Positions 22,456 through 42,852 of a stretch of DNA of 64,000 nt are shown piece after piece. The DNA is taken from assembly GCA_965140585.1 (NCBI GenBank), contig OZ223264.1:480001-544000 (forward strand). The letters run 5' to 3'. The position numbers and the translations under genes were made by a program. Source of the stretch: Spirochaetia bacterium (GTDB taxonomy: Bacteria; Spirochaetota; Spirochaetia; UBA9216). A model generated the notes under the pieces. That model made no database searches, had not been told where the DNA came from, and saw nothing but the letters and a program-made list of their open reading frames with translations. Position 1 is the stretch's first letter. The number at the start of each line of letters is the position of its first letter.

Positions 22456-22962
22456 TCAACCGTGTGAATCAATATCTACAGCATCCCAGGGGTAGCATAT
22501 CCACTTGTCTTCAATTTCTTCACCGACATAGTATCGGTTTATCTCTTCAGGAATAATGCCGCGCTTCTCCTTTAGTTTGTTGTGAAGTACTGCAACGGCT
22601 ATTTCAGAGGGTTCGTCACTCAGGAGCTCTCTGAGACAGTATTCAAGGGTGGTTCGTGAGTCATCAACCTCGTCAACAAGAAGAATCTTCTTCCCCTTCA
22701 GCTTTTTTTCGACTTCATCGATCCACTGGATTTTTTCTGGAGCAGCCTTCGGCTGATTGTTTTTGTCGTAAAGCGAAAGGCCTACAGTCAGAATGGGTCT
22801 TGCAATGAAGGTTTTTATGATTCTGGCCGGAATAAAACCACCGGTTCCTATTGCAACAATAAGATCAGGGTCGTATCCTGATTCAATTATCTCTTCAGCA
22901 AGGTTCTTTATTGTTTTATGTATCTGATTATACGTATAATAGATCTTCTGGGGTTCTGACAT
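22456..22962 (-). CDS. Purine (xanthine/hypoxanthine-guanine) phosphoribosyltransferase
   Basis: AIGTGGFIPARI, PRPP loop ILLVDEVDDSRTTL, WICYPWD; upstream of nucleoside ABC genes. Confidence 0.85.
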   Translation of the reverse strand: MSEPQKIYYTYNQIHKTIKNLAEEIIESGYDPDLIVAIGTGGFIPARIIKTFIARPILTVGLSLYDKNNQPKAAPEKIQWIDEVEKKLKGKKILLVDEVDDSRTTLEYCLRELLSDEPSEIAVAVLHNKLKEKRGIIPEEINRYYVGEEIEDKWICYPWDAVDIDSHG

Positions 22963-22991
22963 GTAAATCTCCGTGTTTGTGGATGGAAGTC

Positions 22992-23020
22992 AGAATAATG
23001 AACTGAAAATAACTTTTCAA
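22992..23020 (-). promoter_or_regulatory. sigma70-like promoter for PRTase/BMP operon
   Basis: Minus strand TTGAAA-17 bp-TATTCT; SD-like GGAG before ATG 22962. Confidence 0.55.
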
Positions 23021-23022
23021 GT

Positions 23023-23190
23023 GAGCTTTTTGCAAAACTCGGTTAGTTTTGCAAAAAGCTTTGAAGCAAAATTTTACATAATCATGTAAAACATTATTTA
23101 ATAACAAATTGTAAAATTTTCTTCATTTACATTAAGGTCGCAATTTCAAAACTTTCTAAGTTTTGAAATTGCCTCAAGTGCAACGCACTA
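23023..23190 (-). repeat. Four-hairpin intergenic element, copy A
   Basis: IRs 23024-39/23045-60 (16 bp perfect), 23062-78/23110-25, 23140-54/23158-72 (15 bp perfect), 23177-81/23185-89; homologous to inverted 37875-38014. Strand is inferred from G-U bias in the other copies. Confidence 0.8.
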
Positions 23191-23218
23191 TTTTTCGAGA
23201 ATATAATCAGAGGAAGAA

Positions 23219-26200
23219 ATGATCAGGATTAAAAATATAATTTTCGGGTTAATGATTGCCGGATGCGGACTTCTTGTGGCTTTTCTGGGCTTTAATATTG
23301 TGCAGAGTACTGTTTCACTAGGCAGTTTTTCGGCAGGAAGCAATACAGTGAAAGTTCCTGAGGGCAAAACAGTCTCTCTGGACAGCCGTTGGCTGTTTGT
23401 AAAAGATGAGCTTGTCGCTCCTGAAGATGCTGCAGTGAGATTCAGCAGTGTCACCGGTACAATTTCACCTAAGATTTTTCCTTCAGGATCCGGAAGTCTG
23501 TATCTTATTCTTGATATCGATGAATCCTGTAAGAATCCGGCGCTTCTTATTAATCCTGTTTATTCCGCTTTTTCAGTTTATATTAATGGTAATTATGCCG
23601 GCGGAGCCGGTTCGCCTGCAGAAAATTACTCCGGTGAAACGGCTTCAACCGATACAATGATTATTCCCTTTCAGACCGACTCCTCAAAGATTGGAATTCT
23701 GATCCATATATCAAACTTTTCACATTACTATGGCGGAAGCCTGCTTAACTGGGTTGAGCTGGGCCGCTTTGATAATATTGTAAAGCGGGAACGCTTCGGC
23801 AAGATTCTTGATTCGCTGATGTTTTTTATGATGCTGGCCTTTGCGGTGATGCACTTTATTAATCAGTTTTACCAGAAGAAAAGGGATTACAGCATGTTTT
23901 TCTCTCTATTCTGCTTTTTCTATTCGCTCTATGTTCTTACAACCGGCAGAATGCTGCTTACCGCCATAATCCCGCAGATTCCACTCGGGCTGGTTTTCAG
24001 GCTTGAGATTATTTTTCTGATATTTTCAGTTCCTCTGCTTGCAAATTATTTCCGTTCGCTTTTCAGTTCCGAGGTTCCGAGATGGTTTGTCATAATTCTG
24101 CAGACAGCGGCTATACCCTTTACTCTGGTGATGGCTGCAGCGCCCCTCTGGATTACTGTCTATGCGGCAAGGGGCTTCATTGCCGTACAGGCCGCAGCAT
24201 TTCTTTTCCTGCTGATCTTCATCATAAGAGCTGTAGCTGCCCACCGGAAATTCAGCAAAATGTCGCTTTTAAGTTTTTCAGTCTTTTTTCTTGTTATGCT
24301 GAATGACGGATTGATTCTGCTTGGTCTGATACATTCGATAAAACTGATATGGGCAGGAGTCTTTCTCTTTATCCTTCCTCAGACATACAAGGTTATAGTA
24401 GACGGATTTACCGATCTGAGAGAATTTCAAACACTGCATATGCAGCTTGCAGCAGTGACAAAGCAGAAAGATCTCTTCTTTTCAAAGAATTCCGATGAAC
24501 TTGCCAAACCAATACATAATATAGTTGAATTGGGTGAGAGCCTGCTGCGAGGCTCAATAGGTCCGCTCAATTCCGAGCAGATAGCAACATCCTCGCTTAT
24601 CGTCTCAAACGGAATCAGGCTTTCCAATATGGTCAACGATCTTGTGGACTTTACCGTCATTAAGGAAAAAACGGTTAAACTCAATTTCGGATCTGTGGAT
24701 CTGTTCAAGGTTTCCAGAAAGGTTATAAGCAGCTGTGACGCCCTTGTTGCAGTTCGGGATCTCTCTCTGATGAGTGAAATTAACAGAGATGATCCTTTTG
24801 CCTACGGAGATGAACGGCGTATTGAGCAGATTCTCTATAATATAATCACAACCTGTATCAGGCATCTTACCAGCGGAAGTATAAATATATCCGCAGATTT
24901 TACAGATACTCATGCTGAACTCAGGATTAAGACTGAAGGCTGCAGTATGGCCGAAGATGCAATAATGCAGCTTCTGAATGTGGAAATCTCAATGTCGAAG
25001 GATAATGAAAGCGAGGATATGGGTGAGATGAGTCTCGCTATCGCATATATTCTGGCAGAGATGCATTCCAGCAGGGTTAATGTTGAAAAGCAGGAGGATG
25101 GCTCGGTTCTGTTCAGCCTTAAACTTGAAAAGTGGGCAGGAGAGGAGCCTCTGAGTGACGAGGAATACCTTGAGATGGATGCACTCATAAATTTGCAGCC
25201 CGTCTTTGATGAGGTTACATCTGACAGGGATATTGAAGTGCTTCTTCTCGGAAAGGATGTAGAAGAACTTCAGATCATGAAAAGCCAGCTCGCCTCAATG
25301 AATTATACGGTAATCCCGATGTTCAACGGCAGAGATGCACTATCCCGCATAAAAAGCGATCCGCCTAATCTGGTAATTGTAAATGTGAAGCTTACGGATA
25401 TGAGCGGATATGATGTCTGCAGCGAAATAAGAACAGTGTATTCAAAAGATGCCCTTCCTGTAATTCTTGTTATGAATAAGGAAGACATGAGTGAAATGAT
25501 GGAAGGGCTAACCTCCGGGGCTAATGACTTCCTTTCTCGCCCGTACATTCAGGAGGAGTTCCTGACAAGGGTAAATACTCATCTCCAGCTTTCAAGAATC
25601 AGCACTGTATACAGCCGCTTCGTTCCAACGGAGTTTCTGCGTTCACTGGGGTCGCATAATATTGTGGATGTTGAACTCGGTGATCAGGTACAGAAGGAGA
25701 TGACAATCCTTTTTGTTGATATCCGTGCATTCACAAACCTGTCTGAAAATATGACTCCGGAGGAAAACTTCAAATTTATCAATTCCTACCTGAGCCGCTT
25801 CAGCCCCATGATAACCAATAACGGAGGGTTTGTTGACAAATACATCGGTGATGCCATCATGGCGCTTTTTCCCAACAGTCCAGAAGATGCAATCAGAGCA
25901 GCAAATCAGATGATTGAGCATGTGGCTGTATACAACGGACATCGTGCCAATGTCGGCTACCGTGCCATCAATATCGGAGTCGGTATCCATACCGGTAACA
26001 TGATTCTGGGAATCATCGGTGATGAAACAAGAATGCAGGGAACCGTTATATCGGATGCTGTAAACCTTGCCAGCCGTATTCAGGATGTTACCAAGCTCTA
26101 CAAGGCCAATGTCGTAATCAGTCAGGAAAGCTTCATGAAAATTGATGATATGATGAATCATAACTTCCGCTTTCTAGGCCGTGTACGGGTAAAGGGCAAG

Positions 26201-29300: not shown

Positions 29301-30435
29301 ATGCACAACAACTCAACACACTTCCTCTACATGAGGAAGGCTCTGGCACTGGCCTGTAAAGCCGGTGTCCGGGAAACCTCTCCGAACCCGAGAGTCGGTG
29401 CCGTCATTTTCAAAGACGGCCGGATAATCGGAGAGGGCTATCATCACGGGCCGGGGGCTCCGCACGCGGAAGCCGCGGCCATCGCAGACGCACGGACGCG
29501 TTTTCCGCAGCAGCTGCCCGGAGCAGACCTCTATGTCACCCTGGAACCCTGCTGTCACAGCAGCCCGGGTAAAAGGACTCCGCCTTGCACGGACGTTATT
29601 CTGCGTTCGGGGGATTACTTCAGTCTGTGCCGCTGTCCAGGATCCCAATCCGCAGGTTGCGGGTAGGGGTCTTGAACTGCTAAGAGCCCGGGGGCTGAAG
29701 GTTACTTCAGGAATTCTTGAACAGGAAGCTGAAGAGCTTAACCGCTGGTATTTTCATTCAATGCGTACAGGCCGCCCCTGGGTTATCCTCAAGGCTGCCC
29801 AGAGTCTGGACGGTTTCATCGCAGACAGGAGCGGAAAGTCAAAATGGATCTCCTGTCCCGAGTCGAGAGAGGAAGTTCACCGGCTTCGGGCAGATGTCGA
29901 CGCGGTTCTTGTGGGCCGGGGAACTTTCAACTCCGACGACCCTCTTCTTACAAGCCGGGCAGGGAGGTTTCAGGATGCTGACGTCCGTCAGCCTGTTCCG
30001 ATAATTCTTGGAAGTCCCGGCAGACTTAACCCCGGCAGCAGGCTTTTACTCAATCCTCCCTCCGGGATGATAATTGCCTGTTCAGATGAGGCTTTCAATA
30101 ACGCAGAAGAGTTTGAATCAAGGGGTATAAAAATCCTGAGGTTCACCGATCTTTCTGAGCTTCTTCGAACTCTCAGGACTCTGGGAATCAATTCCATCCT
30201 TGTTGAAGGAGGGAACCGCGTATTCAACAGCTTTATTGGACAGGGCCTCGCAGATGAGATGATGCTTTATATCGCTCCGCTCCTGTTCGGCTCGGGGCTG
30301 CCCGGGTTGTCAGGCTTTGACGGAGCCGGGGAAAATGCTGCTCCGGCCTTCATTTCAGCAGACTGGGCCCGGTTAGGTACTGATATCCGCTTCCGCGGCC
30401 TCTTCAAAGGAGGTCCAGAATGTTTACCGGCCTGA
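29301..30435 (+). pseudogene. ribD: RibD deaminase/reductase, frameshifted at G5 tract 29609-29613 (possible sequencing error)
   Basis: SPNPRVG, HAE, TLEPCCH...TPPC, then GITSV...DPNPQVAGRG, KAAQSLDG, DDPLLT, LVEGG in next frame; deleting one G restores the ORF. Confidence 0.9.
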
Positions 30436-35702: not shown

Positions 35703-35829
35703 ATCCTTCTTTTTCAAAGAAAACATTGCTTGAATTACTCTCGTAACTATCTTATAATCAACACTCAAAACTTATATTAATATCCATAATAATATTTAGT
35801 TACATCTTTTGTGCTTTCGGAGGGTAATT

Positions 35830-37851
35830 GTGCGAATTAGAAAGAAGTTAAATTTACTTGCTATAGGTGTTATAGGGACTCTTTTTATTGGAGTTATTGC
35901 TTTCGGACTGACCCTGGCTCCGACAATCCTGATGAGAACTGAAAAAGATAATCTGATGGTGCTCGATACTTCCATCTCAGAATTACGAGCGGAAGTTAAT
36001 AAGTTGGCCAATGCTCAGCTTGCATCCCAACGCGACGTTATTATAGCTGATCATGAACAACTTACAAAGAATTTTGAAATGCTGGATAATGTAGAAGCAC
36101 TCAGCAAAGATGAAGATATTGCAGAATCAATACAGATTATGAAGAGATTGTATACACTGTATTCCGGCAATTATTTTGATTTGATAAGCAACATTACCAA
36201 TCTTGGCCAGGAGGCTGAGGCAATATTTTTTACCGATAACGTAAAAATTGACACATTCAGGGAATCTACACTGGTACAGAATTCAGGAAAAGAGAATATC
36301 ATCTATTCCAAGGTTAAATCTCTTCTGTCGGTTATTACCATTCTTGATTCAAATCTTACTTCAACACACATGGTGGTAACCGAACAGTTTGAGCTTATGA
36401 ACGATTTGATCAATAAAAAAGAGCTGAACGCGTACATAATCGGTGTGGGAATAATTGTAGTGATCGGCATAGCTGCATTTATTGCTGTCTTTTTTATAAC
36501 CGGATTGATAGTAAGATCCATCAGTGCTGCTCATAAAGGAATTGAGCTCATGAGTTCGGGTGATCTTTCCATTAATTTTGATATAAAGAGCAAAGATGAG
36601 ATTCAGTCTCTCGGAGAGAATCTCAATACCCTGACAGATAAACTGAAGAATGTATTTTCGTCAATGAAGTCCGGTGCAAAAGACGGTGTTGAACTTCAGG
36701 AAGAGCTAATTACTTCAACCAACCAGACCTCAGCTGCGGCTCAGGAGATTGCCTCAAACAGTGAGTCAATCAGAAAGCAGTTCAACAGCCTTGCTGAGCT
36801 TGCATCAGGGGCTCAGGAAGCGTCAGAAATAATGAAAAGAACTTTGGGTATGCTCAGTGATTTTATAGGTGAGCAGAAATCGATGGTAGAAGAGTCTACT
36901 ACTGCGGTAACCCAGATGATAAGTTCGATCAATAATGTTACCGAGATAACCCAGAAAAAGAAAAGTGCTACAGACATTCTTGTTAAGACTGCCGAATCCG
37001 GCGGTGCCAAGCTTGATACAACTACATCAATAATTAATGATATCACATCGAATCTTGATGAGATCAAGGGTACAGCCTCTATCATACAGCAGATAGCAAG
37101 TCAGACCAATCTTCTGGCAATGAATGCTGCCATTGAGGCTGCGCATGCAGGTGAGGCCGGACGCGGATTCGCCGTAGTAGCCGATGAAATCAGAAAACTT
37201 GCGGAAGCTTCCTCGATGAACTCAAAACAGATAAGCGGGGTTCTGAAAGAGGTCGTTGAGAGAATCGAAATGGCTTCATCGGCAGGCTCTGAAACACAGC
37301 TTGCATTCAATGCCATTGATACCGAGGTTAAGGGGGTTTCCCAGTCTCTGGAAGAGATTTCAATGAGCATGGAGGAACTCAGTATCGGCGGCAAGCAGAT
37401 TCTTCAGTCGATGACCGGTCTTCAGGAAGTTTCATTCAAGGTAGACGGCGGGAATTCTGAGATGGATCAGGCTTCTGTTAAAGTATCAGATGCTATCTCT
37501 ACTGTTTCGAGGGTTACATCCGAGGTCGCAAACAGTGCTGCTGAGATAACTGCCGGCATTAAGGAAATCAGTTCATCAATGCTGCTGCTCTCTGATCTTG
37601 CCGAAAAACTCGGTGAAATCACTGATCTGCTTGAAACCGAGGCCAGTCAGTATAAAACTGAAGCTGCGGCTGAAACACCCGTTGCAGATGATTCTGCTGT
37701 AAAAACTGATGATGAAGCAGTCAGAACCTATGCAGAGTCATTTGAAGGCGGACTCAGCAGTACAAAGGAAAGCTCCAGTCCGGAACTATCCGATGCAACG
37801 ACTGTTACCCTTGCTGATGAGCAGGAAGATTCAAATATAGAGGAGTTGTGA
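35830..37851 (+). CDS. Methyl-accepting chemotaxis protein
   Basis: Two TM helices, HAMP (GDLS...KDEI), [38 protein letters not shown]; GGAGG before GTG 35830. Confidence 0.95.
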
Positions 37852-37874: not shown

Positions 37875-38014
37875 ATAGTTACTAACTAACTGTAAAATCA
37901 AAAGTTGGTGACTTTTGATTTTGCTTCCTTATATGTAAATGAAAGATTTTGTAATTAAAGTTACAAAATCTTTCAGAGAAACAAATATACCCAGCCGGGT
38001 TATATTTGTATCTC
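37875..38014 (+). repeat. Four-hairpin intergenic element, copy B (inverted relative to A)
   Basis: IRs 37877-81/37887-91, 37894-905/37911-22, 37940-54/37961-75, 37976-92/37998-38014; linker CCTTATATGTAAATGAA. Confidence 0.8.
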
Positions 38015-38017
38015 CGG

Positions 38018-38674
38018 TTACCGGCTTTTTTTTACATCTATTCTTTTACAGTAATCCGTAATTACACATTCCGAGCATTTGGGTGATAAGGGGGTGCAGG
38101 TCCGCTGTCCGTAGCTGACAAGCATTTCATTAAGGGGGATCCAGTATTTTTCGGGCAAAACCTTTTCCAGTGCTAATTCCGTATCATCCGGATTTTTTGT
38201 ATTAACCCATCCGGCTCTGTTGGATATACGGTGTACGTGGGTATCTACACATATTGCATTGATTCCGAAGCCCAGATTAAGCGTGAGGTTCGCCGTCTTG
38301 CGTCCGACTCCCGGTAGTTTAAGGAGTTCATCCCTGTCTGAAGGTATTTTGCCGTCGTGTTCATTAATTATAATTGTGCAGCATTTCTTTATACTCGAAG
38401 CCTTGTTCCGGTAGAAAGCTGCAGGATAAATCAGCTCCTCGATCCTTTCCTCGTCAAGGCTGCTGAGTGTGTATATGTCAGGGGCTTCTGCGAAAAGTCT
38501 CTCTGAAGCTGCAAGTGTAACTTCGTCACGGGTTCTCAAAGACAATATGGTTGAAAACAGAACCCGGTAGGGGTCGGAATCAGCTTCCGCAATCGCAGAT
38601 ATTGAAGGAAGTATATCGTTTTGAATGTGCTTTCGAAGAAGCTTGAAAACGGACTCCCAGTCCCCTGCGTTCAA
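38018..38674 (-). CDS. nth: Endonuclease III
   Basis: HhH LPGVGRKTA, VDTHVHR, C-x6-C-x2-C-x5-C 4Fe-4S motif. Confidence 0.93.
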   Translation of the reverse strand: MNAGDWESVFKLLRKHIQNDILPSISAIAEADSDPYRVLFSTILSLRTRDEVTLAASERLFAEAPDIYTLSSLDEERIEELIYPAAFYRNKASSIKKCCTIIINEHDGKIPSDRDELLKLPGVGRKTANLTLNLGFGINAICVDTHVHRISNRAGWVNTKNPDDTELALEKVLPEKYWIPLNEMLVSYGQRTCTPLSPKCSECVITDYCKRIDVKKSR

Positions 38675-42079: not shown

Positions 42080-42115
42080 GAGCTTCATGCAAAACCCGGT
42101 TAGTTCTGAAACAGC
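42080..42115 (-). repeat. Partial copy C of hairpin element (AACCG-loop hairpin only)
   Basis: 31/37 identity by manual alignment to 23023-23059. Confidence 0.7.
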
Positions 42116-42117
42116 CT

Positions 42118-42852
42118 CTATAGAATATGTCTGAGAAAGTTTTTAGTTCTTTCTTCAGAAGGCGAATCGAAGACCTGTTCAGGAGACCCTGTTTCAATGA
42201 TCTCACCGTCGTCCATAAAAACCACCCGATCCGCCGCCGCCCTTGCAAATCCCATCTCATGTGAAACAACCATCATGGTCATTCCGTCCCTGGCAAGATC
42301 CAGCATAACATCAAGTACTTCTTTAATCATTTCAGGATCGAGTGCGCTGGTGGGTTCGTCAAAAAGCATCACCCTGGGATTCATAGCCAGCGCCCGGGCA
42401 ATTGCAACACGCTGCTGCTGTCCTCCGGAAAGCTGCTGCGGGTATGCGTTCTCCTTCTCCGCCAGTCCGACCCTTGAAAGAAGTCTTCGGGCGGTCTCAT
42501 CCGCCTCGTTTTTGGTCATTTTTTTTACTGTTTTAAGCGCAAGTGTAATGTTCTCAAGTGCAGTTATATGGCTGAAAAGGTTGAAGTTCTGGAAAACCAT
42601 TCCTACTTCCTCCCTGATCTTGCGAATGTCGGATTTAGTGTCGGTAACACAGTCGTCATCAACCCAGATTTCACCCGAAGTGAGGATTTCAAGGCGGTTC
42701 ACGCAGCGGAGCATTGTGCTTTTTCCGCTTCCTGAGGGTCCGATTACCAGTACCACCTCACCTGGTTTAACGTCAAGGCTGGCGTTTCTAAGCGCCTGTA
42801 TATCGCCGAAGTGTTTGCTGGCATCTTTTATCCGGATTCTGTATTCCGCCAT
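42118..42852 (-). CDS. Polar amino-acid ABC transporter ATPase (GlnQ-like)
   Basis: [43 protein letters not shown]; start 42852 chosen from promoter TTGACT(42890)-16 bp-TATTCT. Confidence 0.92.

Follow-up and report, generated by a model that had tools for sequence, protein, structure and literature searches.

Bacterial MITEs are described as non-coding, AT-rich, intergenic elements of <500 bp with terminal inverted repeats of 4-30 bp; they have direct repeats and stable predicted stem-loops, and an IS is their presumed source and supplier of transposase (PMC10969869). The pneumococcal BOX elements are named beside them in the same account (PMC10969869). In the Bacillus cereus group, the bcr1 element of ~155 bp has 5-bp direct repeats and a non-conserved distribution among strains; compensatory changes keep its multi-stem structure, and it is reportedly transcribed (PMC3184786).

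The element described here lies in a 64-kb window (the whole stretch of DNA analysed) of a Spirochaetia genome, G000; the congeneric genome used for comparison is G001. This three-hairpin repeat is very likely a MITE with ends like those of an IS5/IS1182-like IS, that is, mobile DNA and not an RNA gene. It resembles bacterial MITEs, as characterised in the account drawn on here, in size, AT-richness, terminal repeats, predicted stem-loops and an IS as presumed source, and in direct repeats that are present on young copies and fade on old ones (PMC10969869). Unlike the usual MITEs of that account, it does not form a single end-to-end hairpin: its ends are separate palindromes with a third hairpin between them, and target duplications are also borne by a 39-nt derivative that consists of its two ends alone. 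The closest described analogue found is bcr1, which shares the size, direct repeats, strain variability and compensated multi-stem structure, as judged from its published description; it differs in belonging to another phylum, in having a 5-bp instead of a 4-bp duplication and in its reported transcription. BOX elements have a modular structure. The present element, compared by description, is likewise modular, with exchangeable modules and a stable predicted structure, but no tandem multiplication of its middle module was seen. Paper searches did not find a MITE family from this lineage, and the element is a previously undescribed family within a known kind, the bacterial MITE, from a poorly known lineage of Spirochaetia.

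Copy A, a young 153-bp MITE with GAG...CTC ends, occupies 23023..23175 on the + strand. Hairpin 1 pairs 23023-23039 with 23045-23061 around the loop CGGTT (23040-23044), and hairpin 2 pairs 23063-23078 with 23110-23124 around a variable interior. An unpaired linker (23125-23139) leads to hairpin 3, in which 23140-23153 pairs with 23159-23172. The parts conserved among copies are the hairpin-1 loop, the linker and the hairpin-3 core. These three hairpins and the linker are found where the original prediction had placed them, both in copy A and in the reverse complement of copy B. Copies are 125-175 bp long and have 26-30% G+C; no ORF of at least 80 aa is present within 23023-23175, in keeping with the small, non-coding nature of MITEs. 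Folding of 23023-23175 (+) gave a minimum free energy of -55 kcal/mol, with a z of -8.1. The covariance model R1, built from six copies with copy B left out, scored copy A at 169.8 bits on the + strand and at 50.7 bits on the - strand.

Terminal inverted repeats had been denied in the original prediction. They are present: both termini are imperfect 17-bp inverted repeats starting with GAG. When the first 17 nt of a copy are set against its last 17 nt read as reverse complement, 10.9/17 positions agree on average, compared with 4.7 for internal 17-mers. The match is 12-15/17 in young copies and 5-9/17 in old ones such as B. An inverted copy backs each terminal repeat, and hairpins 1 and 3 thus form the ends of the element, with hairpin 2 and the conserved unpaired linker placed between them.

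The limits of copy A were set by comparison with G001. The orthologous site in G001 is empty: the sequence is continuous and holds a single AAGT, versus AAGT-element-AAGT in G000, with the duplicated target at 23019..23022 and 23176..23179. The check at orthologous loci that had been proposed earlier thus yielded an exact empty site. The element ends at 23175 and not at 23190, as had been predicted. The small fourth hairpin (23177..23189, +), previously counted as part of the element, is also present at the G001 empty site and is therefore pre-existing flanking DNA. This hairpin is the sole match in a terminator-like scan of 22900-23300. When copy A was compared with four G001 copies at other loci, identity was 85-94% over 152-169 aligned nt. 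Copy A lies between a divergent phosphoribosyltransferase gene and a gene for a 1076-aa sensor kinase/response-regulator/cyclase, and ends 43 nt upstream of the start of the latter.

Copy B (37889..38014, - strand, ~126 bp) is an old, diverged copy. It shares A's three hairpins, of which hairpin 2 is shorter, and both its target duplication and its terminal repeats are decayed (flanks match at 0/4 positions, ends at 7/17). Its start lies 3 nt past the stop codon of an endonuclease III gene (38018-38674, -); on its other side, 37 nt separate it from the stop of a convergent MCP gene (35809-37851, +). Copy B is present at the orthologous site in G001 with 91% identity. The proposed kinship of A and B was borne out by models that had not seen B: an HMM of four other copies found it with an E of 0.007, and R1 found it at 86.4 bits with an E of 2e-14. 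A direct reading of the two sequences also confirms the claimed changes, namely three compensatory swaps in hairpin 3 and a T-A to C-G replacement in the pair that closes the loop of hairpin 1.

Searches of G000 with blastn and nhmmer revealed three further copies of exactly A's length, of which C and D are 87-92% identical to A and E is more distant, plus several diverged copies. With R1, 12 full copies were detected in G000, all on the correct strand; A and B are the only ones within the window. All 12 are intergenic or overlap gene ends by <=13 nt. R1 matches (E<=0.001) were obtained in 9/10 other genomes of the bacterial family, with up to 38 per genome, and in 3/50 genomes outside the family, elsewhere in the class. 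G008 is a genome with near-identical copies, as recent activity would leave them. More than 100 matches are present in related genomes. Six pattern hits were rechecked with R1; the one in a Spirochaetales MAG scored as a member, and the five outside Spirochaetes did not.

The 12 copies in G001 were compared with the corresponding G000 sites. At two of these sites G000 is cleanly empty, the duplications being TTAT and AAGT, and at one a short remnant is left. Another two sites hold short derivatives in G000, namely a form reduced to one hairpin and a solo that lies 4 nt away and has its own duplication. The remaining seven G001 copies are colinear with G000 copies (B, E, G, H, K, L and the C1:29057 locus). 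Filled and empty sites are thus found in both directions between G000 and G001. The X locus (C1:28947-29194) was left out of the ortholog counts because it consists of two overlapping inverted family copies, which score 63.3 and 64.3 bits and may represent a nested or head-to-head insertion. Two other repeated regions were noted when G000 was compared with itself and with G001: a short-period tandem array at C6:524148-524521, with matches stepping by ~21 nt, and a 20-kb region at C9:465800-487000 with repeated units of ~0.5-1 kb.

Target duplications were scored on 35 copies. Perfect 4-nt duplications flank 15/35 copies, against 20/1190 (1.7%) of mismatched left/right controls, and the flanks match at >=3/4 positions for 24/35 copies, against 10% of controls. 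The target words are AT-rich and without a fixed sequence; AAGT occurs three times among the 35 copies.

Covariation was analysed in the same number of copies, 35 from several genomes, aligned to R1. Model-based alignments were used since MAFFT alone misaligned the diverged copies. In this alignment, which is model-fitted and favours structure, the signal is still very large: standard pairs fill 95.5% of cells versus 71.3% in shuffles, and both sides have changed in 40/46 pairs. Pairing falls to ~57% when partners are slid by one column, and none of 500 shuffles reached any of the covariation measures. The possibility that A and B are merely AT-rich palindromes with a chance likeness had been raised at the outset, and the low G+C content of the copies is what would favour it. 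The detection of B by a model that did not contain it, the behaviour of the shuffles and the many matches in related genomes leave no room for such an explanation.

Strong covariation of all three stems, a conserved hairpin-1 loop and linker, the very stable fold and the strand asymmetry of the R1 score of copy A would also be expected of a structured small-RNA or ribozyme-like gene family with hairpins selected at the RNA level, as the original prediction had proposed. The composition of the stems speaks against this. Among 1550 stem cells of the model-fitted alignment, 1467 are Watson-Crick, 16 are G·T/T·G and 20 are A·C/C·A. Selected RNA normally has more G·U than A·C in its stems. G·T is not above A·C here, and the stems thus carry no RNA-strand signal; changes that are nearly purely Watson-Crick fit the pattern of DNA palindromes. 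The strand asymmetry can be explained by the asymmetric loops and the linker alone. A scan of copy A revealed no promoter-like site within it in its own orientation, and in the terminator-like scans of copies A and B the element strand was free of matches. Rfam gave no relevant match to the element at gathering and E-value thresholds; near copy A, the best sub-threshold match reached 26 bits against a threshold of 80. The insertion polymorphism, the 4-bp duplications and the IS-type ends are likewise at odds with an RNA gene, and an origin of this kind is very improbable. The more general expectation of a dispersed family with conserved hairpins that is absent from Rfam was correct. The sole Rfam family above threshold in the window is an FMN riboswitch (RF00050, 29008-29154, +, 95.5 bits vs 66.2), which lies upstream of ORFs starting at 29301 and 29533.

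Movement of single-stranded DNA by a hairpin-recognising Y1 (HUH) transposase, as for REP/BIME-like or IS200/IS605-type elements, had also been put forward. The element has in common with REP, BIME and REPIN sequences that it is made of short intergenic palindromes, dispersed and at times paired, whose stems are compensated. Hairpins are present at both ends, the stems vary by pure Watson-Crick changes with pairing kept, as expected of DNA hairpins, and in size the solo hairpins of 39 nt resemble REP sequences. Target duplications are not expected of Y1 systems. Unlike REP/BIME/REPIN with RAYT, the element is flanked by duplications of a constant 4 bp, whose target word is not fixed, and its ends match a DDE-type IS. 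The Y1 profile PF01797 matched nothing in G000, in G001 or in six further carriers (G003, G006-G010); it was found in 3/11 genomes, one of which, G004, has no MITE match, and the search was positive in 6/14 control genomes. A Y1-type mover is thus highly improbable. The broader proposal of a trans-acting mover is probably right.

The matching IS was identified in G023, when IS5-like loci of relatives were scanned. It is 1449 bp long and encodes a 391-aa transposase with DUF772 and DDE_Tnp_1. Its left end is identical to the left ends of the G007 (L056) and G008 copies (17/17), and its right end matches the A-type right end at 14/17 positions. The difference between left and right ends of the MITE is the same as in this IS. 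Ends of this same type are also borne by IS elements in G021 (5 loci) and G022. The combination of inverted-repeat ends and a matching DDE-type IS identifies the element as a MITE, one that differs from the IS in lacking the transposase. The G023 transposase falls below the curated cut-offs of all NCBIfam IS models (best scores: IS1182, 91.8 bits vs 270; IS5_4, 81.8 vs 140) and is thus not placed in a subgroup. At the single complete IS of this type (n=1), the flanks match at only 3/4 positions. Members of the IS5 group typically duplicate 4 bp (ISfinder table), and the IS5 target is palindromic; the MITE targets are AT-rich words without a palindromic target of this sort.

A decayed relative of this transposase is present in G000. 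It was recognised at C7:62008-62885 as three pieces of 59, 50 and 54% identity. In the relic IS, C7:61793-62903, the transposase is spread over three frames with stops and lacks the N-terminus; one recognisable end, which matches, remains at C7:61793. Of nine G000 sites with <=2 mismatches from the G023 left end, seven lie at MITE, solo or relic ends. The earlier statement that no transposase is nearby holds within the window; it does not hold for the genome, given this relic. Neither G000 nor G001 yielded an intact partner IS, and the same is true of most carriers. An intact G023-type transposase is seen in G023 alone; the transposase also occurs in G021, where the contig cuts the best match, and G023 and G021 have no MITE match. 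Most of the relatives are fragmented MAGs, in which IS elements often stay unassembled. No autonomous copy, with left and right ends 0.5-4 kb apart, was found in G000, and the one candidate pair of ends encloses a glycerol-kinase-like gene and not a transposase.

Other transposases were considered as partners. A self-comparison of G000 for repeats of >=400 bp returned rRNA operons, duplicated genes and one IS5-family IS. The latter is present as two intact copies of ~1.19 kb (C1:857549-858737 and C1:877200-878396) that are 96% identical, and its 338-aa transposase scores 276 bits on NF033581. The ends of the NF033581-type IS match G043-type MITE ends at 16/17 positions; as a partner of the A-type copies it was rejected, as its ends are only 11/17 identical (counted by eye). 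Among the 10 other family genomes, it was found in one (G004, broken copies and no MITE match), and G000 is the only genome with both this IS and the MITE. It is flanked by TTAA/TTAA in G004 and TTTA/TTAA in G000, and an orthologous empty site was not found in G001. The IS4-like IS of G007 was also set aside, since its ends differ and its duplication is 9 bp. G007 holds ten copies of this ~1.3-kb IS (L091, L094, L097 and L100-L106), with a 394-aa transposase, and seven of the ten lie within ~92 kb. PF13586, found in G009 only, and PF13359, found in 0/5 genomes, were discarded. The rve loci were rejected as a source, having no MITE-like ends by R1 (best E 0.044, 18.4 bits). When PF05598 was searched in five further genomes, none was detected in G043, which has two young copies.

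A probable course of events can be outlined for the MITE. The DDE transposase of an IS5/IS1182-like IS, supplied in trans, would recognise the ends of the MITE and move it. By making a 4-bp staggered cut in AT-rich intergenic DNA, it would give rise to the 4-bp duplications. Copy A is a recent insertion, and the element may still be mobile; copy B is an old, immobile copy kept between convergent genes. Recombination between copies probably exchanges hairpin modules and gives rise to the 39-nt solo forms. End recognition by a transposase leaves the conservation of the linker and of the hairpin-1 loop unaccounted for, and likewise the covariation of the internal hairpin 2.

Besides the full copies, G000 holds the "solo" derivatives of ~39 nt. 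The one in the window, at 42080..42118 (C1:522080, +), joins the left end and its loop to the right end; it lacks a target duplication and is missed by the full-length model R1. Duplications of 4 nt were seen by eye on 6/16 solo forms. Exchange of modules is suggested by copy E. Its hairpin 1 in G000 is close to that of copy D (14/16 positions), and the G001 ortholog has another hairpin 1 that is equally well paired. Over the rest of the element, the two orthologs differ at 0/29 hairpin 2+3 pairs and at 7/67 unpaired columns. A D-like hairpin 1 in G000, a different one in G001 and a little-changed remainder point to an exchange of modules between copies, rather than slow compensatory evolution, as the probable source of the change in E.

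Old copies retain near-perfect hairpins although their duplications and terminal repeats have decayed. The 5' end lies <=13 nt from an upstream same-strand stop codon in 6/12 G000 copies (B, G, H, I, L and C9:25672), all of them older. In copies H, I, J, G and C9:25672, a T precedes the element start and TGA spans the junction; in H, I and C9:25672 the upstream gene stops at this TGA, and its stop codon may thus have been provided or replaced by the insertion. Co-option by the host is conceivable for old copies such as B, for instance with their hairpins terminating or stabilising the mRNA of the gene just upstream; such a role would be compatible with the MITE reading and is put forward tentatively, as a rather unlikely addition. 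The position of half the G000 copies behind a stop codon is in its favour, as is the constancy of the stems between G000 and G001: hairpins 2 and 3 are unchanged in B (0/27 comparable pairs) and in E, as are hairpins 1 and 3 in H (0/31 pairs), while the aligned regions overall differ by 7-11% between these orthologous copies. Hairpin 3 of B, on the + strand, also matches the terminator-like scan behind the MCP gene. On the other hand, hairpin 1 has no U-tract behind it and the stems are AT-rich, orthologous K, L and G diverge faster than their own flanks, and siting at gene ends may merely reflect what selection tolerates.

Stated more widely, the family may extend beyond selfish DNA: its hairpins, conserved loop and conserved linker might persist through a use of old copies by the host, for instance as 3'-end hairpins sited exactly at stop codons or as a structured element that binds protein, and the 39-nt form might be independently mobile. 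This proposal is speculative, and we consider it doubtful. If it were true, the two-end 39-nt form would be among the smallest transposable elements.

A candidate novel RNA is thus replaced by a defined mobile-element family of a poorly known Spirochaetia lineage. The family accounts for many of the intergenic hairpins in these genomes and for breaks in draft assemblies at such sites. Strong compensatory covariation alone is no proof of an RNA gene, since palindromes of mobile DNA give an equal signal. The insertions provide polymorphism markers between species. Copy A, which lies upstream of the sensor kinase/cyclase gene and is missing in the sister species, offers a natural case in which an effect of a MITE on the expression of a neighbouring gene may be sought.
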